A stretch of DNA of 64,000 bases from Minisyncoccota bacterium. GTDB lineage: Bacteria > Patescibacteriota > Minisyncoccia > Phycocordibacterales > UBA9973. How positions within the stretch are numbered: position 1 is the first letter of the stretch; every line of letters starts with the position of its first letter. A program made the translations under genes and the position numbers. Below, in pieces: positions 162 through 18,205 of the stretch. The stretch spans positions 91,763 through 155,762 of the forward strand of contig JBAZKU010000001.1 of the NCBI GenBank assembly GCA_041650615.1, read 5' to 3'. The notes beneath the pieces are model-generated. The model saw only the letters and a program-made list of their open reading frames with translations, was not told the origin of the DNA and did no database searches.

Positions 162-1874
162 ATGCAAAGCGAAATAAAAAATTGTCAGAACTGCAAAAAG
201 GATTTCGTGATTGAGCCGGAAGATTTTAATTTCTATGAAAAAATAAAAGTGCCTCCGCCGACTTGGTGTCCGGAATGTCGGATGATAAGGAGAATGATAT
301 TTAGAAACGAACGTGTTTTTTATAAAGATGTTTGTAGTTTATGTGGAAAAAATATAATTTCAATGTATAGCCCCAACAATCAATTAAAAATTTATTGTGA
401 TAAATGCTGGTGGGGAGATGGATGGGACGAAATGAATTACGGAATGGAATATGATTGGAATACACCCTTCTTTTCACAATGGATAAAATTATTTAAACAA
501 GTTCCTTTAATTCAAGCTTGGAAGTTTAACAACATTAATTCAGATTACATAAATTATGCCACTGACGATAAAAATTGTTATCTCTCATCTTCTATATTAG
601 ATTGTGAAAATGTTTATTACTCTTATGCTGTTGATAAAAGCCAGTATATATTTGATTCAATATATTCTAATAAGTCTTCTTTGTGTTATGAAAATATAGA
701 TTCTCAAAATAATTATAATAGTATTTTTTTAATAAATTGCAGTAATTGCATAGATTCTGCTTTGTTGTTTGATTGTGTAAATTGTCAAAATTGTTTTCTA
801 TCTTCTAACTTGCGTAATAAAAAATATATTTTCAAGAATATTCAGTATTCTAAACCAGAATATAAATCAAAAGTATCAGAAATAAAAACAGGGGATTTTT
901 CTACTTTGCGAAAATCATTGTCAGAATTTACTGAAATAAAAGAAAAAAAATCAATTCATAAATATATTCAAGTAATAAATGCAATTAAGTATTTGGGAAA
1001 TAATATTGAAAATTCTAAAAATATAATTTTTTCCTTTAATATTTATAATGCTGAAAATATTAAATATTCTGCCCGTGGAGCAAATGGTAAAGATATTATG
1101 GATGTTTATGGAGCAGGAGATTCGGAACTTGTTTATGAAGGCGTTGCTCCGTCATTTAAAGGATCGAACGCACAATTTTGTATAACGAACAGAGCTTCAC
1201 ATAATATAAAATATTCTTTTTTATGTTCTGCTTCCCAAAATCTCTTTGCCTGCATCGGTCTTCGCTCCAAATCCTACTGCATTCTCAACAAACAATATAC
1301 TAAGGAAGAATATGAAGAATTAGTACCGAAAATAATTAAACACATGAACGATATGCCTTATGTTGATAAAAAGGGTAGAGTCTACAAATACGGAGAATTC
1401 TTTCCTTCAGAATTAAGTCCATTTTGTTACAACGAAACCATAGCTCAAGAATACTTTCCTCTAACCAAAGAAGAAGCCTTCAAACAAGGATATAAGTGGA
1501 AAGAGAAAGAAGAAAGAAACTATCAAATAGATATTAAAAATGAAGAGATTCCGAATGATATTAAAGAGGTAGATGATTCAATCATTAATAAAGTGATAGA
1601 ATGCGAACATAAAGGAAAATGTAACGAACAATGCACCGAAGCCTTCAAAATCATTCCAGATGAACTGACTTTCTATAAACGAATGAATCTACCTTTACCT
1701 CATTTGTGTCCCAACTGCAGACATTATCAGAGACTAAAACAACGCAATCCTTTAAAACTCTGGCATAGAAAATGCATGAAAGAAGGATGCAATAATGAAT
1801 TTGAAACCAGCTACGCTCCAGATAGGCCGGAGATTGTTTACTGTGAAAGATGTTATCAACAAGAAGTGTATTAA
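162..1874 (+). CDS. Cys-rich multi-zinc-ribbon protein, paralog A (function unknown)
   Basis: 570-aa ORF. N-terminus has CxNC-x17-CPECR plus a second CxxC..CxxC. The centre has ~20-aa Cys/Ser/Asn-rich repeats (CxNCxDSxxLxDCxxCxNCF). The C-terminal ~200 aa is conserved with the ORFs at 6688 and 8543 (MPYxDKKGRxYKYGEFFP ... LCPNCR ... NEFETxYAPDRPEIVYCExCY). Confidence 0.85.
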   Translation: MQSEIKNCQNCKKDFVIEPEDFNFYEKIKVPPPTWCPECRMIRRMIFRNERVFYKDVCSLCGKNIISMYSPNNQLKIYCDKCWWGDGWDEMNYGMEYDWNTPFFSQWIKLFKQVPLIQAWKFNNINSDYINYATDDKNCYLSSSILDCENVYYSYAVDKSQYIFDSIYSNKSSLCYENIDSQNNYNSIFLINCSNCIDSALLFDCVNCQNCFLSSNLRNKKYIFKNIQYSKPEYKSKVSEIKTGDFSTLRKSLSEFTEIKEKKSIHKYIQVINAIKYLGNNIENSKNIIFSFNIYNAENIKYSARGANGKDIMDVYGAGDSELVYEGVAPSFKGSNAQFCITNRASHNIKYSFLCSASQNLFACIGLRSKSYCILNKQYTKEEYEELVPKIIKHMNDMPYVDKKGRVYKYGEFFPSELSPFCYNETIAQEYFPLTKEEAFKQGYKWKEKEERNYQIDIKNEEIPNDIKEVDDSIINKVIECEHKGKCNEQCTEAFKIIPDELTFYKRMNLPLPHLCPNCRHYQRLKQRNPLKLWHRKCMKEGCNNEFETSYAPDRPEIVYCERCYQQEVY

Positions 1875-2410
1875 TTTTTTACACTTTTAAGAAAAGCGAG
1901 ATTTGTTTCTTCGTCTAATTTATCGGTGACGATAATCATCAATTCGGTTCCCAACCCCAAATCTTTTTTGATGTTTGTAAAAAGATGTTCATACGGAAAA
2001 GGAGAAATCCAGACGGTATTTTTAATGCAAACGAAATCCGCTTTCTTTAAAAGATAACGCAGTGCTTCGCGTTCGTTTTTTCTTTCTTCTGGAATATCTA
2101 AAATTATAATTCTCCAAAAACCATCCCAAGTGGTGGATACAAGTGCGCCTTCTCCCTCAAGCTTAATGGAGTTTAGTTTATTTTTACCTTTTTTTGTTAA
2201 TTTTAAGTAGCTTTTATTATCAGACTGAATCATTTCAACACAGCCTGACTCAACTAAATTCTTTATAGAACGGGTAGTTGCATACATCCCCTCCTTGTTG
2301 AGGAGGGGGGTAGGGGTGGTGATTTTATTCTTTATTTCTTCTAAAGAAATAGCTGGTTTTTCGGCTAAAACTTTAAGAATTTTATTAGAATATTCTTTTC
2401 TGCTTGACAT
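1871..2410 (-). CDS. putative wHTH transcriptional regulator, PaaX-like C-terminal region (VWISPFP)
   Basis: 179-aa ORF with a 4-nt overlap with the upstream gene. The motif NTVWISP resembles PaaX_C. Family assignment is weak. Confidence 0.4.
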   Translation of the reverse strand: MSSRKEYSNKILKVLAEKPAISLEEIKNKITTPTPLLNKEGMYATTRSIKNLVESGCVEMIQSDNKSYLKLTKKGKNKLNSIKLEGEGALVSTTWDGFWRIIILDIPEERKNEREALRYLLKKADFVCIKNTVWISPFPYEHLFTNIKKDLGLGTELMIIVTDKLDEETNLAFLKSVKN

Positions 2411-2510
2411 GTGTCTATGTTATCATATATACTCTAATTATACAAGTTTTCAGTGGTCGCAAAATAGTCGTTAAATAAACATTATAAGTAATAAATATAA
2501 TAGTTAATTT

Positions 2511-4421
2511 ATGAGTAAAATAATAGGTATAGATTTGGGTACAACAAATTCGGCTGTCGCTATCATTGAAGGAGGAGCGCCGAAAATTATTGAAAATGTG
2601 GAAGGTAATCGCACTACGCCTTCTGTTGTGGCTATAACAAAAAATGGTGATCGTATCATCGGACTTCTGGCAAAAAGACAAGCAGTTACCAATCCGGAAA
2701 ATACAATTTCTGAAATGAAGCGCTATATGGGCCACCGTTTTGACGATCCCGGAGTACAAAAAGATAAAACTTCTGCTCCTTTTAAAATTGAAGCGGGAGA
2801 AGACGGCGGAGTAAAAGTAAAAATGTCCGATAAATTTTATCGTCCGGAAGAAATTTCTGCGATGGTTTTACAAAAAATAAAATCTGACGTTGAGGCTAAA
2901 TTAGGAGAAAAAATAACTGAAGCAGTTATCACGGTTCCTGCATATTTTAATGATGCGCAAAGAAAAGCGACCAAAGATGCGGGACAAATTGCCGGTCTTG
3001 ATGTAAAACGTATTATTAATGAACCGACGGCTGCCGCTCTTGCTTATGGATTTAATAAAAAGAAAAATGAAAAAATAGTTGTCTACGATTTCGGTGGAGG
3101 AACTTTTGATATATCGGTGCTTGAAATTGGCGATGATGTTATTGAAGTAAAATCAACCGATGGCGACTCGCATATGGGTGGAGGAGATATTGATAGGAAA
3201 GTTATTGCTTGGATTGCCGAAGAGTATAAAAAGGAATCAGGAATTGATATTAGAAAAGATCCGCTTGCTCATCAAAGATTAAAAGAAGCGGCTGAAAAAG
3301 CGAAACATGAACTTTCCACTACCTTGGAAGCGGAAATAAATATTCCGTTCATTACTTCCGATTCTGGAGGACCGAAACATTTACTGATGAAAATGACCCG
3401 AGCCACGCTGGAATCTTTAGCCAAAGAATATATTGATCGTTCTATTGAAATAACTAAAAGAGCGCTTGAGGCATCTCCGTTTAAGATGAATGAAATAAAT
3501 GAGATTGTAATGGTGGGCGGACAAACTAGAATGCCAATGATGGTAGAAGCGGTAAAAAATCTTTTCGGTAAAACGCCGAATATGACCATTAATCCTGATG
3601 AAGTTGTAGCCTTGGGTGCTGCCGTGCAAGGAGGTGTCTTAGCCGGAGATGTGCGGGATGTATTGCTCTTGGACGTGATACCGCTTTCTCTTGGTATTGA
3701 GACATTGGGAGGGGTAGCTACAAAATTAATTGATAGAAATACAACTATTCCAGCTTCTAAATCTCAAGTATTTTCAACAGCAGCTGATAATCAGACTTCT
3801 GTGGAAATTCATATAGTACAAGGGGAACGCCCGATGGCATCCGATAATAAATCTCTCGGTAGATTTATTTTAGATGGGATTCCACCAGCTCCTCGCGGTA
3901 TACCGCAAGTGGAAGTTACTTTTGATATTGACGTGAATGGAATATTAAATGTAAAAGCGATGGATAAAGCTTCTGGCAAAGCCCAGTCAATTAAAATAGA
4001 AGCAAGTTCGGGATTGAAAGAGGAAGATATTAAAAGAATGCAAGCGGATGCCGAATCGCATGCTGAAGAAGATAAAAAGAAAAAAGAAATTGTGGATGTA
4101 AAAAATACGGCGGAAATGATTATTTACACTGCTGAAAAGGCATTGAAAGACAATGAAGCAAAAATTCCAACCGATGTGAAAGAAAGTGTCAACACAAAAA
4201 TAACTGCTTTGCGCGGAGTAAAAGATGGCACTGATACGGAAGCAATTAAAAAAGCTACCGAAGAACTTTCCAATGAAATGTCTAAAATCGGCGAAGCCAT
4301 GAGCAAGGCCGGAGGAACACCTCCTCCAGGTGCTTCAGCTCCCGAAGAGCAGGGGCCAGAAGTTCATGATGCAGAATTCAAGGAGGGGGATAAAGGTAAA
4401 GAAGAACCTCCGAAACAGTAA
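2511..4421 (+). CDS. dnaK: molecular chaperone DnaK (Hsp70)
   Basis: 636 aa with [39 protein letters not shown] and a charged C-terminal tail. Confidence 0.97.
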
Positions 4422-4430
4422 ATAATTTTT

Positions 4431-4470
4431 CCCGGACACCTTCCGGACACCTGGTGTCCGGAACCAAAAC
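4431..4470. repeat. 23-bp perfect palindrome TTCCGGACACC-T-GGTGTCCGGAA preceded by a direct half-site CCCGGACACC
   Basis: Read directly. The half-site ACCTGGTGTCCGGA is identical to 14 nt of the TWCPEC-coding motif at 8642..8655. Confidence 0.7.
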
Positions 4471-4500
4471 AAAAAGCCCTTTTAAAAGGGCTTTTTGTTT
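4471..4500 (+). terminator. rho-independent terminator after dnaK
   Basis: Stem AAAGCCCTTT / AAAGGGCTTT with a TTAA loop, followed by TTTTTGTTT. Confidence 0.7.
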
Positions 4501-4528
4501 TGATAAAAATTTAATTTTAGGGTATAAT
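4500..4528 (+). promoter_or_regulatory. promoter TTGATA-17-TATAAT, 8 nt upstream of ATG 4537 (leaderless)
   Basis: TTGATA at 4500..4505, TATAAT at 4523..4528, ATG at 4537. Confidence 0.5.
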
Positions 4529-4536
4529 TTACCCGT

Positions 4537-6624
4537 ATGGAGTTGCACGAGTTACCTAAAAATAAAGAAATAACATATATTGGTTATACCACTTACCGGG
4601 ATAAAAATCAGCTTTTTGGCATAAAACGCAAAGATAGGCGTCAGCATGTTTATATCCTCGGAAAATCCGGTACCGGTAAATCTGCGTTGATGTTCAATAT
4701 GATTATTCAGAATATTGAAAACGGCGACGGAGTTTGCATGGTTGACCCGCACGGGGAAAATGTGGAAGCAATTTTATCAGCTATTCCGCCGCACCGCATG
4801 AAAGATGTCGTTTATTTCAATCCGGCAGATACAGATTTTCATATTGGATTTAATGTTTTGGAACTCATTGACCCAAAATACAAACACTTAGTGGCTTCAG
4901 GGCTTATGGGTATTTTCACAAAAATTTGGGCGAACGCTTGGAGCGCTCGAATGGAATACATTTTAAATAATGCGATTTTAGCATTACTTGATACTCCAGG
5001 TTCAACTCTTCTCGGTATTCCTAGAATGCTAGTGGACAAAGATTATCGACAAAAAATAATCACCAATTTAAAAGACCCTGTAATCAAGGCTTTCTGGGTG
5101 CATGAATATGAGGCCTGGCAGGATAAATTCAGAAACGAAGCTATCGCGCCGATTCAAAATAAAGTCGGACAATTTCTTTCCACTTCCATTATCAGAAATA
5201 TTGTCGGTCAATCTATCAGTACCATAAATATTTTTGACATAATGAATGAAGGCAAGATTTTTCTGGTGAATGTTTCCAAGGGGCGTATCGGTGAAGACAA
5301 TTCTTCGCTCTTGGGAGGAATGATCATTACCAAAATTCAGTTGGCGGCTATGGAACGCGTGCGTATCCCGGAAGAAGTCAGAAAAGATTTCTATCTTTAT
5401 GTGGATGAATTTCAAAATTTCGTAACTGATGCTTTCGCTGGTATTTTGTCTGAAGCCAGAAAATATAGATTAAATCTTACGGTGGCCCATCAATACACCG
5501 CTCAACTTATTACGGAAAAAAATTCGAGTGTTCGAGATGCTATTTTTGGAAACGTCGGAACGATGATAGTTTTTAGAGTCGGAGCTGATGATGCGGAATT
5601 TTTGGAAAAAGAATTTGAACCGGAGTTTACCCCTCAAGATATTGTCAATTTGCCAAACTTTAAAGTCTATTTGAAATTAATGATAGATGGTGTATCATCT
5701 CGTCCGTTTTCCGCCAAGACTCTTCCGCCGATGGTAAAATCAGGCAATAAAGAAGTGGAAGAAGAAGTTATAAAAACTTCTCGCGCCCTTTATTGCAGGC
5801 CGAGAGAAGTAGTGGAAAGAGAAATAAATGATTGGAGCGGAATGTCCATCGGTGATGATAGTAATTCCGGTGGCGTAGAAAAATTTCCGGCTATATGCTC
5901 CAATTGCGGAAAAGAAACGACAGTGCCTTTCAAACCGGAGCCGGGCAGGGCAGTATATTGTAAGGATTGTATAGCCAAAATAAAATCTGGAGAAATAAAA
6001 CCGATTGCCGGAGCCACAAAACAAATCAAACAAGATGAGACCAAGTTTTATAAACCCTTGGCTGATTTAGGGATAGAGTTTAAATCAAAAGATGGAACTA
6101 ATGGTATTAATGGAGAAGCAGAAAGATATCCGGAAAGATTAGGTAAGGCCGTACCGCATGATTTTGATAAAAAAATTCCAACTTCCGCAGGAAATGCTTC
6201 ATTTGCGCGTCCGCGAATATTTTCAACAATTAAGAAAGTTTTTACTAAAGGCACTACGAATGAAAAAGCAGCTCCAGTAAAAACAGTGAGAGAAAATCCA
6301 GGGTTAAAAGAGATTTTAAATAAAGCGCTATCTGAAAATAAACCTTCTGTTTCAACACCCATTAAAACTCCAACCCCTGTTTCTGTTCCCACACCAGCCC
6401 CGATTTCTCTTGATGCTCTTAAAACAGTACCTTCAAAACCTGCCCGCAGTGCTACACATGGCGTTGCAGGCGGGGACCGCGCAGCTAGTGCTGAAGATAT
6501 GGATAAATTAAAGAATCTTATTTCAGAGAAAGTTCCCGCGTCCGCGAATAAAGCAAAAGCTTCGCCCGTAGGGACACAGCCGAGGGAAGTTCCGGAAGAT
6601 GTTTTGAGAAAAATTTTAGAGTAA
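4537..6624 (+). CDS. soluble FtsK/HerA/TraD (type IV coupling-protein)-like P-loop ATPase with C-terminal CxxC-x17-CxxC zinc ribbon and Pro/Ala/Lys-rich tail
   Basis: 695 aa. Walker A ILGKSGTGKS, then DPHGE, then Walker B FYLYVDEFQNF. No N-terminal TM segment. Paralog of the ORF at 10477. Confidence 0.75.
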   Translation: MELHELPKNKEITYIGYTTYRDKNQLFGIKRKDRRQHVYILGKSGTGKSALMFNMIIQNIENGDGVCMVDPHGENVEAILSAIPPHRMKDVVYFNPADTDFHIGFNVLELIDPKYKHLVASGLMGIFTKIWANAWSARMEYILNNAILALLDTPGSTLLGIPRMLVDKDYRQKIITNLKDPVIKAFWVHEYEAWQDKFRNEAIAPIQNKVGQFLSTSIIRNIVGQSISTINIFDIMNEGKIFLVNVSKGRIGEDNSSLLGGMIITKIQLAAMERVRIPEEVRKDFYLYVDEFQNFVTDAFAGILSEARKYRLNLTVAHQYTAQLITEKNSSVRDAIFGNVGTMIVFRVGADDAEFLEKEFEPEFTPQDIVNLPNFKVYLKLMIDGVSSRPFSAKTLPPMVKSGNKEVEEEVIKTSRALYCRPREVVEREINDWSGMSIGDDSNSGGVEKFPAICSNCGKETTVPFKPEPGRAVYCKDCIAKIKSGEIKPIAGATKQIKQDETKFYKPLADLGIEFKSKDGTNGINGEAERYPERLGKAVPHDFDKKIPTSAGNASFARPRIFSTIKKVFTKGTTNEKAAPVKTVRENPGLKEILNKALSENKPSVSTPIKTPTPVSVPTPAPISLDALKTVPSKPARSATHGVAGGDRAASAEDMDKLKNLISEKVPASANKAKASPVGTQPREVPEDVLRKILE

Positions 6625-6638
6625 AATTGGCGGGGAAA

Positions 6639-6670
6639 GGTCTTGCCTTAAGGGAGTTCAAGGCAAGACC
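6639..6670 (+). terminator. 11-bp perfect stem-loop (GGTCTTGCCTT...AAGGCAAGACC) between the ATPase and paralog B; no U-tract
   Basis: Inverted repeat read directly. A terminator or processing site is possible. Confidence 0.35.
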
Positions 6671-6687
6671 TTGAGAAGCCAAGATAT

Positions 6688-8415
6688 ATGAATAATGCTA
6701 GTGAAAAGAAAATATGTCAAAACTGTCATGCTGAATTTACCATTGAGCCTGAAGATTTTAAATTTTATGAAAAAATAAAAGTTCCACCACCGACTTTTTG
6801 TCCTGAATGCCGAACGGTTCGGCGTTTATGCTGGAGAAATGAAATGTCTCTTTTTAAGAGAAAATGTGATGCAGAAGGACATGACGAAAATGTTATTACC
6901 ATCTATCACCCCGACGAAAAACTCACAGTATATGATATAAAATCTTGGTGGGGAGATAAATGGAATGCTGTTTTACACGGAAAAGATTATGACTTCTCCA
7001 AACCATTTTTTCAGCAATGGAAAGAGTTGCGCGACAGCATCCCGCTTCAATGTCTTTCGAATTCAAAAGCAACAAATAGCGATTATTGCAATGTTGCCGA
7101 AGAAAGTAAAGATAGTTATATGTCTTCAGCTTCCTGGAAAATAGAAAAGACATTTTATTCAAATAGGATAGGAGAAACCAAAGAATCTTCAGATCTTTAC
7201 GTAGTTCATAAGTCTGAGCTTTGTTATGAAGATATATTTTGCACGGATTGTTATCATACTTTGTATTCCCTAAAGTGCAAAAATTGTGTAGATTCATATT
7301 TTTTGTATGATTGTAACGGTTGCATAGATTGTTTCGGATGTAGTAATCTTCGAAGTAAGTCATATTGCATGTGGAATGAACAGCTTACAAGGGAAGAATA
7401 TATGAACCGTTTGGCGAAACTGGATCTTAAAAGTTACAAAACGATACTTGAATCAAAAAAGAAATTTGACGAGCTTTACCTAAAATCAATTCATCGTTTT
7501 GCCAACCAGATTAGAATAATAAATTCTACCGGCGATAATCTTGATGGAGCAAAGAACTGTAAGGCATGTTTTGATACATTTGACCAAGTGGAAGATTGTA
7601 AATATTCTCATTGGAACATACGCGTGAAAGATGCATATGATTCAGGCCCAGGGGGTGGAGAAGGAGAATTGATGTATGAAATATTTGACACTGGACTGGG
7701 TAATTTTCGCAATTTATTTACTAATGTAGTTTATAGTTCTAATGACATTGAATATTCTTTTTATTGTTATGGTTGCTCATATTTATTTGGATGTATCGGT
7801 ATAAGAAATAAAAATTATTGCATTTTAAATAAACAATATACAAAAGAATCCTTCGAGGAACTCAGGACAAAAATCAAAGAGCAGATGAATGAAATGCCAT
7901 ATATTGATAAAAGAGGAATTGTCTATAAATACGGAGAATTTTTTCCAGCTGAAATTTCTCCATTTTGCTACAATGAAACTCAAGCGCAAGATTATTTTCC
8001 ATTAACCAAAGAAGAAGCGCTTAAGAGAGGGTATAGATGGCGGGATAGAAAAACTAGTGATTATGTAACGACAATACAGGCCGAAGATCTTCCAGATAGC
8101 TTGGATGATACTCCAGATTCTATTACTGAAGAGATTATAGGTTGCTTGCATAAAGGAAAATGTAAAGATCGCTGTTTAGGGGCCTTTAAAATAACAGAGA
8201 ACGAGTTTAGATTATATCACCAACTCGGAGTACCACTGCCACGCCTTTGTTTTATTTGTCGTCACGAAGCCAGATTAAGAAAACGCAACCCTATGAAATT
8301 ATGGCGCCGAAAGTGTATGAAACCTGGTTGTTCCAATGAATTTGAAACAACTTACGCTCCCGATAGGCCGGAAATAATTTACTGCGAGAGTTGTTATAAT
8401 AAAGAGGTGTATTAG
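6688..8415 (+). CDS. Cys-rich multi-zinc-ribbon protein, paralog B
   Basis: 575 aa with the same N-terminal CxNC..CPECR ribbon and the same conserved C-terminal domain as the ORF at 162. Confidence 0.85.
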   Translation: MNNASEKKICQNCHAEFTIEPEDFKFYEKIKVPPPTFCPECRTVRRLCWRNEMSLFKRKCDAEGHDENVITIYHPDEKLTVYDIKSWWGDKWNAVLHGKDYDFSKPFFQQWKELRDSIPLQCLSNSKATNSDYCNVAEESKDSYMSSASWKIEKTFYSNRIGETKESSDLYVVHKSELCYEDIFCTDCYHTLYSLKCKNCVDSYFLYDCNGCIDCFGCSNLRSKSYCMWNEQLTREEYMNRLAKLDLKSYKTILESKKKFDELYLKSIHRFANQIRIINSTGDNLDGAKNCKACFDTFDQVEDCKYSHWNIRVKDAYDSGPGGGEGELMYEIFDTGLGNFRNLFTNVVYSSNDIEYSFYCYGCSYLFGCIGIRNKNYCILNKQYTKESFEELRTKIKEQMNEMPYIDKRGIVYKYGEFFPAEISPFCYNETQAQDYFPLTKEEALKRGYRWRDRKTSDYVTTIQAEDLPDSLDDTPDSITEEIIGCLHKGKCKDRCLGAFKITENEFRLYHQLGVPLPRLCFICRHEARLRKRNPMKLWRRKCMKPGCSNEFETTYAPDRPEIIYCESCYNKEVY

Positions 8416-8451
8416 TAAAAATTAATGAACGAAGTGAATATAATTTTTTTA

Positions 8452-8514
8452 ACCCTGTTAAATAATTTTTTATAAAAATTGTTCAAAGGACATTTAACAG
8501 GGTAATGATTTTAA
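8452..8514. repeat. 12-bp perfect inverted repeat ACCCTGTTAAAT / ATTTAACAGGGT with a 39-nt loop between paralogs B and C
   Basis: Read directly. Confidence 0.6.
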
Positions 8515-8542
8515 TACTCATTTCTTTCATTTAAAATCAATT

Positions 8543-10318
8543 ATGCAAGCTGAAACAAAAAATTGTCAGAATTGTAAAAAGGATTTCGTGATTGAACCGG
8601 AAGATTTTAAATTTTACGAAAAAATAAAAGTTCCTCCACCGACCTGGTGTCCGGAGTGTAGGCTTATTCGGCGGCTTGTCTATCGTGAAGATAGACCTCT
8701 GTATAAAGATAAATGTGATAAATGCGGTAAAGATATTATAAGTATTTTTTCTCCAGGAAATCCTTTTGTAGTTTATTGTCAACCTTGTTGGTTTGGAGAT
8801 TCCTGGGATGGAAAAGATTATGGTAGAGATTATGATTTTTCAAAACCGTTTTTTGAACAATTTTATGAATTACAAAAAGTTGTTCCTAACCAGGCCACTG
8901 GTTCAAAAAATTCAGAAAATTGTAATTACTCAAATGGTAATATTCGTTGCAAGAATTGCACTTTAACCTTTGACGGTTATGAATCAATTAACTGTTACAA
9001 CTGTCAAACCCCTGGTTTTGTTCGTGATTCAATAGATTCAGATATTTTAATAAATGGTGATCATTGTTATGAGACCGTAAATTCAAATAATGTGTATAAT
9101 ACAAGATTTACTTATTTTTCTAATGATTGTTTAGATTCCTCTTTTCTTTTTAATTGTATGGGATGTTCAAATTGTTTTTGTTGTGTGAATTTAAGAAATC
9201 AAAAGTATCAAATTTTTAATAAACAATACACAAAAGAGGAATATAGAAAAGAAATAGAAAAATGGGATTTGGGAAGTTATGAAATTACCCAAGAGGCAAA
9301 AGAGAAATTCTGGAAATTTTGCAGTAAAATTCCCAGACGCTTTTCTTTAATTGTAAATTCTAAGAACGTTACAGGTGAGGATATAAAAAATACAAAAAAT
9401 TGTCAAAATTGTTTTTCTACCCTTATGGGTGTAGAAAATTGTAAATACATATTACTTTGTGGTTTATTATTGAAAGACAGTTATGATGTTACCTTAGGTG
9501 GGGGTACTTCAGAACTTTATTATGAAAATTCCGGCGGAATGCAGTCTCAAAGATGTTTTTTTGGTCGTGCCCCTTATAATTCAAAAGATATTGAATATTC
9601 GGAAAAAGTTTACAATTGTTCAAATTGTTTTGGCTGCACAAAATTAAAGAATAAACAATATTGTATCTTAAATAAACAATATACAAAAGAAGAGTATGAA
9701 AAATTAATTCCTAAAATTAAAAAACACATGGATGATATGCCTTATATTGATAAAAAAGGCAGAACCTATAGATATGGCGAATATTTTCCAAGTAAATTTT
9801 CTTTGTGGGCATACAATGAAACGTGGGCGCAAAAATATTTCCCTTTGACAAAAAAAGAAGCATTGGAAAAAGGTTTTAACTGGTATGACGAAGAAGGGAG
9901 AGATTATAAAATAACAATTAAAGCACAAAATTTACCGGACAATATTGTAGATGTCCCCGATTCTATTTTAGAAGAAATTATAGAGTGCGAACATAAAGGA
10001 ACTTGCAATGAACAATGCACAACAGCCTTTCGTATATTACCCAATGAATTGCAATTTTACAGACAAATGAATTTGGCTTTACCTCATTTATGTCCGAGTT
10101 GTCGTTATGGGCAACGTATTAAAAAGAAAAATCCACCGAGATTATGGCATAGAAAATGTATGTGTAATGGGGTAGAATCAGAAGGAGGTATTTATAAAAA
10201 TACTATTAAACATTCTCATGGGGACGGTGAGTGTAAAAACGAGTTTGAGACGGCGATAGGGCCGGAGAGAAAAGAAATAGTATATTGCGAGAAGTGTTAT
10301 CAAGCTGAATTTGTATGA
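8543..10318 (+). CDS. Cys-rich multi-zinc-ribbon protein, paralog C
   Basis: 591 aa with NCQNCKKDFVIEPEDFKFYEKIKVPPPTWCPECR at the N-terminus and the family C-terminal domain. A -10-like TAAAAT lies 6 nt upstream of the ATG. Confidence 0.85.
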   Translation: MQAETKNCQNCKKDFVIEPEDFKFYEKIKVPPPTWCPECRLIRRLVYREDRPLYKDKCDKCGKDIISIFSPGNPFVVYCQPCWFGDSWDGKDYGRDYDFSKPFFEQFYELQKVVPNQATGSKNSENCNYSNGNIRCKNCTLTFDGYESINCYNCQTPGFVRDSIDSDILINGDHCYETVNSNNVYNTRFTYFSNDCLDSSFLFNCMGCSNCFCCVNLRNQKYQIFNKQYTKEEYRKEIEKWDLGSYEITQEAKEKFWKFCSKIPRRFSLIVNSKNVTGEDIKNTKNCQNCFSTLMGVENCKYILLCGLLLKDSYDVTLGGGTSELYYENSGGMQSQRCFFGRAPYNSKDIEYSEKVYNCSNCFGCTKLKNKQYCILNKQYTKEEYEKLIPKIKKHMDDMPYIDKKGRTYRYGEYFPSKFSLWAYNETWAQKYFPLTKKEALEKGFNWYDEEGRDYKITIKAQNLPDNIVDVPDSILEEIIECEHKGTCNEQCTTAFRILPNELQFYRQMNLALPHLCPSCRYGQRIKKKNPPRLWHRKCMCNGVESEGGIYKNTIKHSHGDGECKNEFETAIGPERKEIVYCEKCYQAEFV

Positions 10319-10441
10319 TAAAAAAAATAAAAGCAAAATTAGAATATTTTAAACAAGTTCTACCAATGATTTGGCAAGTAATTAAATTTCGCGTTAAAGT
10401 CTGGTGGCATAATGTTTTTTAAATTACCCTAAAGAAGTTTA

Positions 10442-10470
10442 TTGAAAATAAGGTAAAAATATGCTAAAAT
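10442..10470 (+). promoter_or_regulatory. promoter TTGAAA-17-TAAAAT, 6 nt upstream of ATG 10477
   Basis: Positions read directly. Confidence 0.5.
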
Positions 10471-10476
10471 AACCAT

Positions 10477-11982
10477 ATGCCGAAAGCAAATCGGGTGCAA
10501 ATAATCAAATACGGTCCGCCTCCGCCAGAATTGCCGGTGTTTGGAAAAGTTAAGCCGGAAGAGGCTTCTTTTATTGGACGTACCAATTATGTCGCTTCTC
10601 TTGAAGAAAAGAAATTTATTTTCGGTATTAAACGCATAGACCGCAGACGACATCTTTATATTGTTGGAAAATCCGGAGTTGGAAAAAGTAAATTACTTGA
10701 GCTTCTTATGCGTCAAGATATAACCTATGGTCATGGTTTGTGTTTTATTGACCCGCACGGAGATGTCATAGAAGCTATGCTTGATTACATACCTAAAGAA
10801 CGCATAGAAGATGTTTGCATGATAGACCCAGGAGATGTTGACTTTCCGGCTTCTTTCAATCCGCTAGCCAATGTTGACCCGATGTTTAAATTTCAATTGA
10901 CTCAAGGATTGATTGAAGTTTTACAGAAACAATTCGGAGCCAACTGGACGCCTCGTTTGGAACACGTTTTTCGTTTTACTTGCTTGGCTTTGCTTGATTA
11001 TCCGCATGCTACGATGCGCGGAATGATTTCAATGCTGACAGACAGAAATTACAGACAGAAAGTGGTTGAATATATTACCGACGATATGGTCAAAAGATTC
11101 TTCGCTATAGAATTCGCCGACTGGTCCGAGAAATTTGATACGGATGCTATTATTCCGCTGGTCAACAAACTTGGGCAATTTTTATCCGACCCATTACTGC
11201 GAAATATTTTCGGTCAGAAACAAAATAAAATAGATATAAGCGAATTGATGGACCAAGGCAAACTGATTTTCATAAATCTTTCAAAAGGACGTATTGGGGA
11301 AGAAAATTCAAGCTTCTTCGGTTCAATGTTTTTGACCAAAATAAAACAAGCAGGAATGGAGCGGGCGACTATTCCCGAAGAAGAACGCCGAGATTTTTAT
11401 TTATACATAGATGAGTTTCATAACATTGTTACCCAAACATTTGAAAATATTTTATCTGAAGCTAGAAAATATGCTCTCAATCTTACAATCGCTCACCAAT
11501 ATATCGGTCAACTTATTCCGCAAGTACAACACGCAGTGCTTGGAAATACCGGAAGCTTGATTTGTTTCAGAGTCGGGGGAGAGGACGCAGTTAAATTGAA
11601 ACCGGAATTTGAGCCATTATTCGGTGTTAAAGATATGATTAATTTGGCAGTAGCGGAATTTTATATCAAAATGACGATTGACGGGGAATCTTATGATCCA
11701 TTTTCGGCGGAAACTCTGCGGGTCTTGCCTCCAACCCATGTTTCTTATCGAAAAGAAATCATCGAGGCTTCACGTAGAAAGTATTCAATATCAAAAGATG
11801 ATGCGCAGAAACTAATAGAAGAGGAAGAAGCATCAATTATCCGAAGCGCGGAAGAGAAAGCAATTATAGAAGGTAAGGGAAAGAAAAAAGAAGGCGAAGA
11901 AGAGACAGGAGAAAATAAAGAGGAAAATAAAAAAGAAGAAGTAAAAGGTAAGGTTTCTCAAGAGGCCGAACCTATGATATAA
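10477..11982 (+). CDS. FtsK/HerA/TraD-like P-loop ATPase, paralog 2 (Glu/Lys-rich C-terminal tail)
   Basis: 501 aa with Walker A IVGKSGVGKS, DPHGD and Walker B FYLYIDEFHNI; collinear with the ORF at 4537. Confidence 0.75.
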   Translation: MPKANRVQIIKYGPPPPELPVFGKVKPEEASFIGRTNYVASLEEKKFIFGIKRIDRRRHLYIVGKSGVGKSKLLELLMRQDITYGHGLCFIDPHGDVIEAMLDYIPKERIEDVCMIDPGDVDFPASFNPLANVDPMFKFQLTQGLIEVLQKQFGANWTPRLEHVFRFTCLALLDYPHATMRGMISMLTDRNYRQKVVEYITDDMVKRFFAIEFADWSEKFDTDAIIPLVNKLGQFLSDPLLRNIFGQKQNKIDISELMDQGKLIFINLSKGRIGEENSSFFGSMFLTKIKQAGMERATIPEEERRDFYLYIDEFHNIVTQTFENILSEARKYALNLTIAHQYIGQLIPQVQHAVLGNTGSLICFRVGGEDAVKLKPEFEPLFGVKDMINLAVAEFYIKMTIDGESYDPFSAETLRVLPPTHVSYRKEIIEASRRKYSISKDDAQKLIEEEEASIIRSAEEKAIIEGKGKKKEGEEETGENKEENKKEEVKGKVSQEAEPMI

Positions 11983-11991
11983 ATAAAAATT

Positions 11992-13086
11992 ATGAGTAAA
12001 GATTATTACAATATTTTGGGCGTAAATAAAGGCGCTTCTAAAGATGAAATAAAGAAGGCTTTTTATAAATTGGCGCATAAATATCATCCTGATAAAAAAG
12101 AGGGGAATGAAGCAAAATTTAAAGAAGTAAACGAAGCTTACCAAGTGCTTTCGGATGACACTAAACGTTCAAAATACGACCAATTTGGGTCCGGTTTTGA
12201 AAATATGGGGCAAGGATATGGAGGAGCCAGACAGAGTGGTTTTGAAGGTTTCGATTTTTCTGGTTTTCAAAATGGCGGTGCGGATTTTGACTTTGGTAAT
12301 TTAAATGATATTTTTAGTGATTTCTTTACTGGTGGAATGGGTGGGGGAAGTAGAAGAGAAGCGAGACGCGGACGTGATATCTCTACTGAAATACAGATTT
12401 CTTTTTCTGAATCTGTTTTTGGAACCAGTAGAAAAATTTTAATTACTAAAACCTCAAATTGTGCCGTTTGCGAAGGTTCCGGCGCAAAACCCGGTACCAA
12501 AATGGAAACTTGTAAGTATTGCAATGGTCAGGGAAAAATTCGCGAAGCAAAAAGAACGATTCTTGGTACTATCTCGAGCACAAAAATTTGCGAGGAATGT
12601 CTGGGTTCCGGAGAAGTACCGAAAGAAAAATGCGAAAATTGTAAAGGCAAAGGAGTATTGCGCCGTGAAGAAGAAATTTCTGTAAATATACCAGCCGGAA
12701 TGCGAGATGGAGAAATGATTAGAATGTCGGGAATGGGCGAAGCGGTTTCAAAGGGAACTGCCGGAGACTTGTATATAAAAGTAAATGTAGCAGCGCACCC
12801 TGTATTTAAACGAGAGGGAAATGACTTAGTAATGAATCTGGAATTAAAATTATCCGATGCTATGCTCGGTACGGAATATCCAATCCAGACTTTGGATGGA
12901 GAAATAAGCGTCAAAATTCCGGAAGGCGTATCTATCAACGAAATTCTTCGAGTAAAGGGAAAGGGCGTACCTATTTCAAAAAGCAAGCGCGGGGATTTGT
13001 TAATTAAGCTCAAAATAAAACTTCCTAAAAAACTTTCCCATAAATCCCGCGAGATTATTGAACAGCTCAAAAAAGAGGGGATATAA
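11992..13086 (+). CDS. dnaJ: chaperone DnaJ
   Basis: J-domain YHPDK, a G/F-rich region and four CxxCxGxG zinc motifs; 364 aa. Confidence 0.95.
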
Positions 13087-13165: not shown

Positions 13166-13753
13166 CTTCCTGAAAATATAATTTTTGTTGGGGTTTTGGT
13201 AAACTTGCTTGCCTCTCTTTGGTATATCAAAACTATTTTCCACGGGAATACTAAACCAAACTTGGTTTCTTGGGTTATTTGGATGCTAGCACCTTTTATT
13301 GGTTTTTTCTTGCAAATAAAGGCTGGAGCTGGAATATCTACCCTGCCAGTATTTATGGCAGGTTTTGGACCTTTTTTGGTGATTATTTTTTCTTTATTCA
13401 AAAAAAATGCCTTTTGGAAAATACAACCTTTTGATTTACTTTGCGGACTTTTTTCCATTCTGGCTCTCATTATTTACATAACTACAAGTAATCTAGGAAT
13501 TTCGGTTTTCTTTGCCGTTTTAAGCGATTTATTAGCCTATATCCCAACTTTTATAAAATCTTGGAAATTTCCGGAAACCGAATCATCGTCCACTTACTCA
13601 GCAAGTATATTTAGCAATGTTTTGTCTTTACTCGTCATAAAAAATTGGATTTTTGCAATATATTCATTTCCAATTTATCTTATATTGGCAAATTTACTTG
13701 AAGTTTATTTCATTTTTCACAAAAGAATTTTTAAGAAAGTAATTTCTTTTTGA
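13163..13753 (+). CDS. hypothetical polytopic membrane protein
   Basis: 196 aa, strongly hydrophobic. Confidence 0.6.
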   Translation: MLPENIIFVGVLVNLLASLWYIKTIFHGNTKPNLVSWVIWMLAPFIGFFLQIKAGAGISTLPVFMAGFGPFLVIIFSLFKKNAFWKIQPFDLLCGLFSILALIIYITTSNLGISVFFAVLSDLLAYIPTFIKSWKFPETESSSTYSASIFSNVLSLLVIKNWIFAIYSFPIYLILANLLEVYFIFHKRIFKKVISF

Positions 13754-14618
13754 ATTTCCGCGTTAGCATTTTATAGCAAATTAAAGCGGCGCCAAATTCC
13801 GTAAGCACTGAATCGCGTTGAGGCGAAACTTCTACAATATCCGCGCCTATTAATTCCTTTTCATCTATCGCTTTTTCAATCAAATCAAGTCCATAATACC
13901 ATTCCAAACCACCCTGTACTGGCGTACCGGTTCCCGGCATATATGCAGGGTCAAATCCATCCACATCAACCGTGATATAGATTTTTTTGGTTTTAATTGA
14001 TTTCAATATTTCTTTTATGGAAACCTCTTTTTTATCCCACTCAAAAACAGTGATTGTTTTTTTATTTTTTTGCCAATATTCATACTCATATTTTGAATAT
14101 GTTCTAATACCCACTTGCACGATAGGGAAGCCGAGTTCATGTATTCTGCGCATTGTGCACGAATGCGCAAATCTTTCATGTTCTTCACTGTAATCACTAT
14201 TATCATCACGAAGATCTTGATGGGCATCTATTTGGAGAACAGTTATCTCTTTCGGATTTTCTTTTTTTGAGATAGCTTCCATTGCTCCGACTGAGACAGT
14301 ATGTTCTCCGCCTAACATAATCATAAATTTTCCGCTATTAAATAATTCTCTATATTCGAAACTTATTTTTTGTACTGCTTTTTCCGGGACAAGTTTTTCC
14401 ATATCGGATATTTCTCTATGAGCAGTTTTTAATATTTTTGCCGGTTCGCAATGCAATTCAACATCAAAAAGTTCCAGGTTGCTATTTAAACAATCTAATA
14501 TTTCCTTGGGAGCTTTGGAAGTGCCTCCCATAAAAGAAACGCTATTTTCATAAGGGGCGCTTAATATAACTGCATCAGCTTCCTCTATATTTTTTGTATT
14601 TACAACCTTGTCTATCAT
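13731..14618 (-). CDS. arginase-family hydrolase (agmatinase / formimidoylglutamase-like)
   Basis: Mn-binding motifs IDAHQDL and VDVDGFDPAYMPGTGTPVQGGL. Confidence 0.8.
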   Translation of the reverse strand: MIDKVVNTKNIEEADAVILSAPYENSVSFMGGTSKAPKEILDCLNSNLELFDVELHCEPAKILKTAHREISDMEKLVPEKAVQKISFEYRELFNSGKFMIMLGGEHTVSVGAMEAISKKENPKEITVLQIDAHQDLRDDNSDYSEEHERFAHSCTMRRIHELGFPIVQVGIRTYSKYEYEYWQKNKKTITVFEWDKKEVSIKEILKSIKTKKIYITVDVDGFDPAYMPGTGTPVQGGLEWYYGLDLIEKAIDEKELIGADIVEVSPQRDSVLTEFGAALICYKMLTRKFKKKLLS

Positions 14619-17493: not shown

Positions 17494-18205
17494 GTGTACA
17501 TAGGAGTGTACATAGGAGTTTCCTATGTATTTGTATCACTAAAGTTAAGCCATTCAAATAGTTCCTTTTTATGATCAATTAATTTTTTAAAATAAATAGG
17601 GAATTGTGATGGATTTAGGATTTGAAATTTTTGCTCAGTATATTCTTTTATGCTTGAATAAGGATATTTTAGAACGTAATTTAGTAAATTAGTTCTATTA
17701 TTATTTTTACTCTCTCGCCAATTTTTATTTATCAATTTTGCTGGATTTAAATGTATATATGAATAAATATATTTTAAATAATTATCTTTATCTATATGAA
17801 TTGATTTAAATACACCCTCATACAATTTACCAGTTCTTTTATATTTTTTATTAAAATACATTGAATATCCAGTTAACAATTTACGCATATATGTAGAAAT
17901 GCCGTTTTCTTTTTTTTCGCGGACAAGAATATGGAAATGATTTGGCATTAAACAATATGCTCCAACATCAACGATTGTTTCTTCTCTATTAAAAAATTTA
18001 TCAATTTCTCTTAGAATGATACTTTTTTCTGTATTACAAAGATACATCAGAAATAGAAAATGTTCATAGTCTTTTTTATCTAAAAATATTATTCTTTTTT
18101 CTGTGCCACGATTATATAAATGATAGTATTCATTTATCGAGAAGGATTGTTTTCTCAGAGCCATAATTTAAGTATAACACATACATAGGAAACTCCTATG
18201 TATTA
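17494..18205 (-). mobile_element. IS200/IS605-like (REP-associated tyrosine transposase) element with hairpin ends
   Basis: Left end: GTACATAGGAG x2 then ACATAGGAGTTTCCTATGT (17496..17529). Right end: ACATAGGAAACTCCTATGT (18183..18201), its exact reverse complement. Confidence 0.7.
17523..18164 (-). CDS. HUH tyrosine transposase (RAYT / TnpA-IS200-like)
   Basis: YHLYNRG, LMPNHFHILV (HuH) and a C-terminal YSYIHLNP motif; 213 aa. Confidence 0.75.
   Translation of the reverse strand: MALRKQSFSINEYYHLYNRGTEKRIIFLDKKDYEHFLFLMYLCNTEKSIILREIDKFFNREETIVDVGAYCLMPNHFHILVREKKENGISTYMRKLLTGYSMYFNKKYKRTGKLYEGVFKSIHIDKDNYLKYIYSYIHLNPAKLINKNWRESKNNNRTNLLNYVLKYPYSSIKEYTEQKFQILNPSQFPIYFKKLIDHKKELFEWLNFSDTNT

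Follow-up and report, generated by a model that had tools for sequence, protein, structure and literature searches.

Coupling-protein-like ATPase pairs and cysteine-rich zinc-finger proteins at a conserved locus of Parcubacteria-type bacteria

Gene content and protein families of the locus

The 5' part of a 64,000-nucleotide stretch of DNA from a Minisyncoccota bacterium (assembly GCA_041650615.1, contig JBAZKU010000001.1, positions 91,763 to 155,762; the whole stretch is referred to as the window) contains a locus in which two ATPases, here termed ATP1 and ATP2, and a family of cysteine-rich proteins, the Cys proteins, are interleaved with chaperone genes. The seven open reading frames (ORFs) of an original prediction made from the sequence were all recovered on the forward strand: CysA (162-1874; 570 aa with 30 cysteines; locus tag WC447_00530), the flanking gene dnaK (2511-4421; HSP70, E 2e-244), ATP1 (4537-6624; 695 aa), CysB (6688-8415; 575 aa, 35 cysteines), CysC (8543-10318; 591 aa, 40 cysteines), ATP2 (10477-11982; 501 aa) and dnaJ (11992-13086), which starts 9 nt past the ATP2 stop codon. 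That gene list had overlooked a small PaaX_M-like regulator between CysA and dnaK (1871-2410, reverse strand; 179 aa; PF20803, E 4e-19), divergently oriented to the latter, and at 570-591 aa the Cys proteins do not merit the description "giant". The paralogy proposed within each family holds up, with 47-50% identity over the full length among the three Cys proteins and 46% over 440 aa between the ATPases (E 3e-136).

The locus had also been thought to occupy the place of grpE. The latter is found upstream of dnaK as usual, outside the window, in the adjoining 10 kb (L094; grpE and CysX at 7751-9998), where the order is rpsM...rpsI-grpE-CysX-CysA. CysX is a fourth, divergent Cys paralogue (552 aa; 32% identical to CysA); its start and the grpE stop codon overlap by 20 nt, and 3 nt separate it from CysA. 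Across the window edge the order thus reads grpE-CysX-CysA-(PaaX_M)-dnaK, and the chaperone operon is broken twice, by a CysX-CysA-PaaX_M insert and by an ATP1-CysB-CysC-ATP2 insert. Every Cys gene of the window falls inside the ATPase locus, and the remaining ~51 kb contain no further Cys or ATPase paralogue.

Both ATPases possess the anticipated Walker A (GKSGTGKS in ATP1, GKSGVGKS in ATP2), DPHG and Walker B motifs (VDEFQN and IDEFHN, respectively), with Walker A starting at residue ~42-64. As predicted, they have no transmembrane (TM) segment, a 19-residue hydrophobicity scan having revealed no hydrophobic 19-mer in either protein. Their placement as soluble members of the clade of type IV coupling proteins (T4CPs), HerA and FtsK is borne out by Pfam, NCBIfam and PDB searches. 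In Pfam, both match TrwB_AAD_bind, T4SS-DNA_transf, DUF87 and TraG-D_C with modest scores that are mostly above the gathering cut-offs; ATP1 exceeds them for TrwB_AAD_bind, T4SS-DNA_transf and TraG-D_C, and the T4SS-DNA_transf scores of ATP1 and ATP2 are 27.9 and 26.0 bits, respectively, against a cut-off of 20.1. The all-alpha domain inserted in the nucleotide-binding domain (NBD) is present, as seen in the TrwB_AAD_bind match. NCBIfam adds weak matches to CedD, which translocates DNA, and to TraD; the only sequence relative in PDB is TrwB (E 7e-4), and as regards HerA and FtsK there are the DUF87 match and weak matches to HerA in PADLOC. An AlphaFold2 (AF2) model of ATP2 attained a pLDDT of only 59.7 because its alignment was shallow, and served for fold-class assignment only.

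In combining a RecA-like NBD with an all-alpha insertion, ATP1 and ATP2 resemble T4CPs such as TrwB of R388, VirD4, TraD, DotL/IcmO and Cag-beta, and as in TraD and DotL there are C-terminal extensions. In contrast to the T4CPs, however, they have no N-terminal TM helix, are not adjacent to virB4, relaxase or mating-pair genes, and constitute a pair of paralogues conserved in the core genome at 85-97% identity across species. Further, the equivalog and subfamily cut-offs of the NCBIfam TraD, VirD4-like and TrbC models are not reached, the best scores being 42.9 and 48.1 bits against 366 bits (TIGR03743, SXT_TraD). With no TM anchor, no linkage to a type IV secretion system (T4SS) and scores below the curated cut-offs, the module would act in the manner of a coupling ATPase without being a canonical T4CP.

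The two ATPases diverge beyond the shared core. In ATP1 the T4CP-like core (residues 1-440) is followed by a CxxC-x17-CxxC finger (residues 449-481, nt 5881-5979) which is a member of PF23477 (zf_Tbcl_2; E 7.6e-14, 51.6 bits against 27) and TIGR04272 (residues 448-482; 55.7 bits, cut-off 36). The C4 ribbon of the original prediction therefore exists, but it is not C-terminal, as a disordered, low-complexity, basic (+11) tail of ~210 aa follows it (residues 486-695, nt 5995-6624). The tail of ATP2 (residues 446-501, nt 11812-11982) is opposite in charge (-7) and terminates in a near-invariant SQEAEPMI. Peptides of a comparable, ExEPxI-like form close distant homologues too, which suggests that the C-terminal peptide might act as a docking motif.

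Among 1.84 billion cluster representatives, 21,470 relatives of the ATPases were recovered, 5,457 of them at E<=1e-30. The best 150 show three architectures. Proteins of the first are ATP2-like and short (~440-470 aa), and those of the second are ATP1-like and extended at the C-terminus, in some cases with the finger. In the third, the ATPase follows an N-terminal domain of ~290-400 aa, which in many cases opens with a TM helix. Proteins of the third architecture match phrog_5156 (E 5e-63), a PHROG family without an assigned function there and with an N-terminal region of ~385 positions. The large Bacillus phages G (gp156, JN638751), CP-51, JL and Shanette also encode distant relatives of the ATPase core, at 22-29% identity; scans of viral contigs with two distant ATP2-like proteins gave no match.

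The ATPase family is itself already known from Patescibacteria, in the form of abundant T4CP homologues unlinked to virB4. A recent survey (PMC12102498, Microb Genom 2025) reports 5,713 VirD4-like T4CP homologues in 2,918 genomes, i.e., ~2 per genome, only 148 of which lie near virB4, and its authors proposed exaptation. ATP1 and ATP2 are almost certainly the same genes as these orphan T4CP homologues. The split into ATP1 and ATP2, the DUF8128 partner (see below), the Cys arrays and the position between dnaK and dnaJ are not described in the passages of that paper on T4CPs, VirD4 or DnaK. More generally, we found no description in the literature of the Cys-rich family, of the ATP1/ATP2 pairing, of the partnership with DUF8128 or of the conserved linkage among them, and a literature search on Cys-rich protein families of CPR bacteria gave no pertinent title among those listed.

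The Cys proteins are built from zinc fingers enclosing a duplicated solenoid. CysA opens with a pair of fingers, the first of the form CxxC-x24-CPxC and the second CxxC-x17-CxxC; the N-terminal ribbon had been given as CxNC-x17-CPECR, but it is the second finger (C58..C82), degenerate in CysB, that has the 17-residue spacing. Next comes a central unit of ~147 aa, present twice, that consists of a helix, a beta-solenoid and the signature CxxCxxCFGC..NLRNK.Y...N.QYTKEEY, then a conserved alpha/beta region (~393-478), and finally another pair of fingers, Cx3C-x24-CPxC and Cx4C-x17-CxxC, the last of which has a 20-aa insertion in CysC. Profile self-comparison with hhalign aligns residues 95-241 with 244-391 (E 8e-22) and the two finger pairs with each other (9-83 with 489-565, E 8e-12). 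The predicted internal duplication is accordingly real, but the short repeat has a period of ~12 residues (multiples of 3) rather than ~20. Conservation is seen in the termini and in the CxxCxxCFGC motifs, against a variable solenoid body. With pI values of 5.7-7.8 the proteins range from near-neutral to acidic; their cysteine content is 5-7%, and CysA, CysB and CysC show no hydrophobic leader by eye, the first finger beginning at residue 8 (no signal-peptide or TM scan was run).

A profile search with the Cys family recovered at least 7,989 clusters at 90% identity; those listed are all named "hypothetical" and all derive from Nomurabacteria, Paceibacterota or Patescibacteria. As with the ATPases, the original prediction could place the family in no named system, and this still stands: there is no match in Pfam or NCBIfam at E<=0.01, no significant match in PADLOC or PHROGs, none in the phage collection and none in a scan of viral contigs with the Cys alignment. 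Below threshold, 57 members match zf_Tbcl (23/57) and zf_Tbcl_2 (8/57) at 15-16 bits, such that a finger of the zf_Tbcl_2 type is common to ATP1, as a full member, and to the Cys proteins, as sub-threshold ones. A CxxC-x17-CxxC domain of this kind binds zinc in small proteins of M. mazei (PMC12704099). Compared with the zf_Tbcl_2 (TIGR04272/PF23477) and PF13451 zf_Tbcl fingers, those of the Cys family differ in being terminal modules of multidomain proteins of ~575 aa.

The AF2 model of the Cys protein (pLDDT 77.7, pTM 0.77) has as its only structural neighbours solenoids of the kind typical of adhesins or fibres, with a best Foldseek E against PDB of 0.38, and a profile search of PDB was empty. 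In its period of ~12 (6+6) and its regular Cys, Asn and Ser residues the family is similar to narrow Cys-laddered beta-solenoids such as the Tenebrio antifreeze protein (1ezg). However, the likeness to this and to the other solenoids compared (left-handed beta-helix acyltransferases, curli CsgA and phage phi29 gp12) is one of generic fold class, with no sequence relationship. Two further candidate roles were rejected. Metallothionein-like zinc storage is ruled out by the cysteine content of only 5-7% along with the conservation of aromatic residues and solenoid structure, and an enzymatic role of the region 393-478 by its lack of conservation in Uhrbacteria.

Conservation of the ATPase/Cys linkage in two clades

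The locus was surveyed in its own, Nomurabacteria-like clade using 80 loci from different species-level genomes (L004-L083), which were found by scanning a genome collection with ATP2 and mapped by tblastn. The mapping covered the proteins encoded in the window and, by profile, DUF8128. In these genomes the position between dnaK and dnaJ noted in the original prediction is real and conserved, dnaK being directly followed by ATP1 in 40/43 loci and ATP2 by dnaJ in 74/78. At least one Cys gene lies within 10 kb of ATP2 in 62/80 loci, and at least one between the ATPases in 41 of the 55 loci that have both. How many Cys genes stand between them nonetheless varies: none in 14, one in 16, two in 20, three in 3 and four in 2 of these 55, with orthologues of CysA, CysB and CysC filling different slots in different genomes. 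ATP1 and ATP2, for their part, are separately orthologous and stand in a fixed order. The view of the locus as a tandem module with a duplicated ATPase-Cys pairing is therefore not sustained, and there is no 1:1 unit of ATPase and Cys protein.

The two components also evolve at strikingly different rates. Median identities to the window proteins are 89% for ATP1 (range 83-97%, 55 genomes) and 88% for ATP2 (85-97%, 80 genomes), next to 85% for DnaK, 77% for DnaJ and 61% for the PaaX_M-like protein, as against only 45% for the best Cys paralogue. The backbone dnaK-ATP1-ATP2-dnaJ is thus conserved, and the Cys genes are its copy-number-variable, fast-evolving component. As an aside, several metagenome-assembled genomes with near-identical ATP2 and Cys genes carry the label "uncultured Candidatus Saccharibacteria" or "Burkholderiales bacterium", which probably reflects mislabelling or mis-binning of Paceibacteria contigs.

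A more distant clade was sampled by scanning metagenomes with an ATP2-like protein (P0262) that is 42% identical to ATP2, which returned six loci. They were assigned to Candidatus Uhrbacteria, a different candidate phylum of the NCBI taxonomy within the Parcubacteria group, from the names of their Cys homologues. The co-occurrence of the two families, on which the original prediction had staked its case, extends to this clade: in the six loci, ATP2 is immediately followed by two to five or more tandem full-length Cys genes, and across the clade all six of the loci with enough sequence have the order DUF8128-ATP1-ATP2-Cys array. Identities to the window proteins have by then fallen to 56-59% for ATP1, 49-51% for ATP2 and 22-28% for the Cys proteins. 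A joint alignment of the Cys proteins of both clades nevertheless retains, besides the last CxxC-x17-C finger, both CxxCxxCFG(C) motifs, the Y/F...N.QY..EEY segments and a treble-clef motif, FY..VPP..P..R, even though the Uhrbacteria versions have lost most of the finger cysteines.

The arrays themselves can be extensive, as seen in annotated contigs that bear out and extend the pattern. One locus (L093) reads secD-secF-DUF8128-ATP1(zf_Tbcl_2)-ATP2-HTH_5-Cys-Cys-S51-HTH_5-Cys-Cys-Cys-Cys-bacA, a second (L096) secD-secF-DUF8128-ATP1-ATP2-Cys-Cys-BroN-Cys-Cys-Cys-Cys-bAvd-like-bacA, and a third (L095) holds at least seven Cys genes of ~575 aa that are 1-2 nt apart in an array of ~14 kb. In all three the array always lies between ATP2 and bacA. 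The genes interrupting the arrays encode HTH_5 (ArsR/SmtB-type), Peptidase_S51, Bro-N and bAvd-like (23S_rRNA_IVP) proteins. The SecD encoded upstream carries an embedded PPIC-type peptidyl-prolyl isomerase domain (L087 3080-5158; L093 1-1885; L096 1-1599).

No dnaK or dnaJ occurs in the flanks of the Uhrbacteria loci. The linkage of ATPase and Cys genes is thus ancient, and the embedding between dnaK and dnaJ is lineage-specific and not a defining feature, given that Uhrbacteria preserve the former without the latter; the recurrent linkage to dnaK and dnaJ that had been envisaged stands for the Nomurabacteria-like loci but not for those of Uhrbacteria. In both clades the module adjoins genes for protein export or folding, namely secD/secF in one and grpE/dnaK/dnaJ in the other.

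A further component emerges from the Uhrbacteria loci. A gene for a DUF8128 (PF26449) protein of ~550-580 aa with one N-terminal TM helix lies directly 5' of ATP1 in L085-L087, L089, L093 and L096 (e.g., L087 6165-7865; L093 2806-4551; L096 2688-4349). These proteins are homologous to the N-terminal extensions of two fused ATPases, P0257 and P0263 (E 1e-28 to 6e-42), and such a fused form is encoded as a third ATPase paralogue of 916 aa in one Nomurabacteria-like locus (L004 15186-17933), 3 kb downstream of dnaJ. The name DUF8128 comes from precomputed annotations, as our own Pfam scan of the N-terminal domain gave no match, and a full-text literature search on DUF8128 yielded no paper. On account of the fused form, DUF8128 is expected to have its bulk on the cytoplasmic side with the ATPase. 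Additionally, since it either adjoins ATP1 or is fused to an ATPase, the motor is probably tethered at the inner face of the membrane.

Candidate functions of the ATPases and the Cys proteins

That ATP1, ATP2 and Cys genes recur together in a distantly related candidate phylum suggests an ATP-driven machine not described before. We propose that the three may form one conserved functional module of Parcubacteria-type bacteria of the candidate phyla radiation (CPR), in which ATP1 and ATP2, ancient paralogues of the T4CPs (hexameric RecA-type translocation ATPases), would probably assemble into a hetero-oligomeric motor. Having no anchor of its own, this motor would probably be held at the inner membrane face via DUF8128, an arrangement that, in the window's own genome, we can only infer. 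The Cys proteins would be the clients of the motor, which would recognise them by the conserved termini and pass them on to be exported to the surface of the cell or, via a separately encoded T4SS, into the host cell. That the Cys proteins are export clients of the ATP1/ATP2 motor is a reading we favour tentatively, a serious possibility that falls short of being probable. It is prompted by their copy number, which varies from 0 to 7 or more, the difference in evolutionary rate from the ATPases, the conserved termini around a variable solenoid, the absence of a visible hydrophobic leader and the export or folding genes next to the module in both clades. The stronger version, of a new, chromosomally fixed protein-translocation machine with ATP1 and ATP2 on a DUF8128 anchor and the Cys proteins as dedicated substrates, we regard as possible but doubtful.

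Export of this kind would resemble that of the VirD4/XVIPCD effectors of the bacteria-killing T4SS of Xanthomonas and Stenotrophomonas and of the EssC/EccC substrates of type VII secretion systems. In contrast to these systems, the present locus is devoid of secretion channel genes, and the Cys family shows neither sequence similarity to the XVIPCD, WXG and LXG proteins nor toxin or immunity domains. The T4SS of Patescibacteria is essential for epibiotic growth in the one genetically tractable member. That of Southlakia has been described as having no recognisable coupling and relaxase proteins (PMC10633639).

Several observations sit uneasily with a role of the Cys proteins as exported clients. 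Zinc fingers of the Cys4 type are usual in cytoplasmic proteins, and export would require them to be unfolded; the finger common to ATP1 and the Cys proteins likewise points to a cytoplasmic life. ATP1 and ATP2 are more conserved than is usual for T4CPs that recognise effectors. No Cys gene is found between the ATPases in 14/55 loci, nor within 10 kb of ATP2 in 18/80, and Cys genes also occur away from the ATPases, as a pair by a class II ribonucleotide reductase (RNR), in a Wzy/polysaccharide cluster and beside a tRNA_edit gene. No DUF8128 homologue was detected in the window or in L005-L083 by hmmsearch with a profile of 66 N-terminal domains. Nor is there a T4SS, virB4, relaxase or pilus gene among the 28 window ORFs scanned, a set that left out ORFs of <150 aa and ~20 ORFs of >=150 aa; T4SS and relaxase genes are equally absent from L090, L092, L093, L095 and L096 (precomputed Pfam annotations) and from the 10 ORFs scanned in L087. 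Only two clades, both in the Parcubacteria group, were sampled. Finally, a T4CP homologue of Southlakia (Saccharimonadia) is reported as non-essential in PMC12102498.

Some of these features would be better accommodated if the Cys proteins stayed in the cytoplasm and served the motor as adaptors, regulators or specificity factors, much as DotN/IcmSW do for DotL or TraM for TraD, with the real substrate being another molecule, most plausibly DNA in uptake, transfer or segregation. DNA is the canonical substrate of T4CPs, as established for TrwB and TraD, and the zinc finger and strongly basic tail (+11) of ATP1, the conservation of the ATPases at the level of housekeeping genes and the weak NCBIfam matches to CedD and TraD are all in keeping with it, as are the cytoplasm-favouring Cys4 fingers, of a domain that binds zinc in M. 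mazei (PMC12704099). The Cys proteins, with a pI of 5.7-7.8, do not look like general nucleic-acid binders, however; no relaxase or competence genes lie adjacent to the ATPase/Cys loci, and at least seven tandem paralogues of 575 aa would be a large investment in adaptors for a genome of ~1 Mb. On balance, we see this as rather unlikely. The Cys genes might alternatively have no functional link with the ATPases, having expanded at a permissive site where adjacency is merely inherited synteny, as might be suspected from their variable number between the ATPases (including zero), from the solitary copies by RNR, tRNA_edit and Wzy/polysaccharide genes and from the unrelated HTH_5, Peptidase_S51, Bro-N and bAvd-like genes inside the Uhrbacteria arrays. 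Against this, the adjacency has outlasted both divergence of the Cys proteins to ~25% identity and complete replacement of the flanks, the genes share one strand and lie close together, and ATP1 and the Cys proteins have a finger type in common; we hence deem a chance association unlikely.

Their embedding in grpE-dnaK-dnaJ in at least 80 genomes raises a different option, that ATP1 and ATP2 are unfoldases or disaggregases working with DnaK, DnaJ and GrpE, with the Cys proteins as zinc-dependent co-chaperones or obligate clients. The CysX start overlapping the grpE stop codon and the 9 nt between ATP2 and dnaJ would fit, and DnaJ too is a zinc-finger protein. To our knowledge, though, no member of the T4CP-fold family acts as a chaperone. 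A functional tie to dnaK and dnaJ is further disfavoured by the absence of this linkage in Uhrbacteria, by the strong double hairpin that separates dnaK from ATP1, and by the promoter-like site that ATP1 has of its own; the conserved candidate operator of dnaK is found before neither ATP1 nor grpE, and at least one Cys-bearing relative (contig of L090) has a ClpB-type gene. Participation in Hsp70 proteostasis consequently appears improbable. Least credible is a role in defence against phages, with a HerA/FtsK-type ATPase at the core of the system. PADLOC does return mad8 matches (E 3.7e-15 and 3.4e-12) besides the weak HerA ones, and there are homologues in Bacillus phages and phrog_5156. These matches are restricted to the ATPases, however, no nuclease, Sir2 or methylase partner accompanies them, and the Cys family, with no PADLOC or PHROG match, is absent from the phage and viral collections. 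The near-universal, fixed position in the core genome at 85-97% identity is moreover the opposite of patchy defence islands, making such a role very improbable.

Should the Cys proteins indeed be exported or injected clients of the ATP1/ATP2 motor, they would constitute the main host-interaction repertoire of these episymbionts, and the ~2 orphan "coupling proteins" per Patescibacteria genome would find an explanation. Thousands of role-less VirD4-like ATPases of Patescibacteria here resolve into a fixed ATP1/ATP2 pair that is conserved like DnaK, the orphan T4CP question becomes a testable hypothesis with named partners, and the Cys-rich family is flagged for structural and localisation work.

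Transcription signals and neighbouring genes

Counts of promoter-like and terminator-like signals in the region are overall not above chance, and the individual sites are accordingly only positional hints. Past the dnaK stop codon are two strong terminator-like hairpins (4432-4502, forward strand; dG -49 kcal/mol, z -7.5), the second of which comprises a 17-bp stem and a U-rich run. A sigma-70-like match, TTGATA-17-TATAAT (4500-4528, forward strand; 11/12, a consensus match only), directly precedes ATP1. These features, together with the 9-nt gap between ATP2 and dnaJ, make ATP1-CysB-CysC-ATP2-dnaJ a likely transcription unit separate from dnaK, and, on account of that gap, dnaJ is probably co-transcribed with ATP2. 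In addition, the spacer between CysB and CysC contains an imperfect 40-nt inverted repeat (8424-8531, forward strand; 75% complementary, z -4.6 against shuffled sequences).

Upstream of dnaK, a second sigma-70-like site, TTGACA-18-TATACT (2404-2433, forward strand; 11/12), is followed just 3' by a palindromic element (2442-2471, forward strand) that is a candidate operator of dnaK rather than of the ATPase/Cys operon. It is unique in the window, with 0 matches expected by chance, and was not found before ATP1 or grpE. The PaaX_M-like gene lies upstream of dnaK in 35 related loci, and most of the 35 PaaX_M-dnaK spacers retain the palindrome with the consensus ACAAGTwTTTnGTGGTCrCnAAAwAnTTGT. The PaaX_M-like protein is best viewed as probably a regulator of dnaK and not a part of the module, and, because the palindrome is not CIRCE, the two are candidates for a new heat-shock operator/repressor pair of this CPR clade.

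Solitary Cys genes in the distant material include one in a Uhrbacteria genome that also carries an array (L092) and another on a metagenome contig (L090). The latter is situated in the polysaccharide/Wzy cluster between two PaaX_M-like genes (3722-4231 and 13465-13959), an arrangement that echoes the adjacency of CysA and PaaX_M in the window. The 20 other window ORFs that were scanned are almost all housekeeping genes, including those for CysRS, DnaB, RecR, several aminoacyl-tRNA synthetases, PepN, FtsW, MurG, a penicillin-binding protein, TopA, RelA and a glycosyltransferase family 4 protein (MraY-type). Of the two exceptions, one has no Pfam match and the other is an IS200-like Y1 transposase (17523-18164, reverse strand; PF01797, E 2.5e-8) that is surrounded by housekeeping genes.

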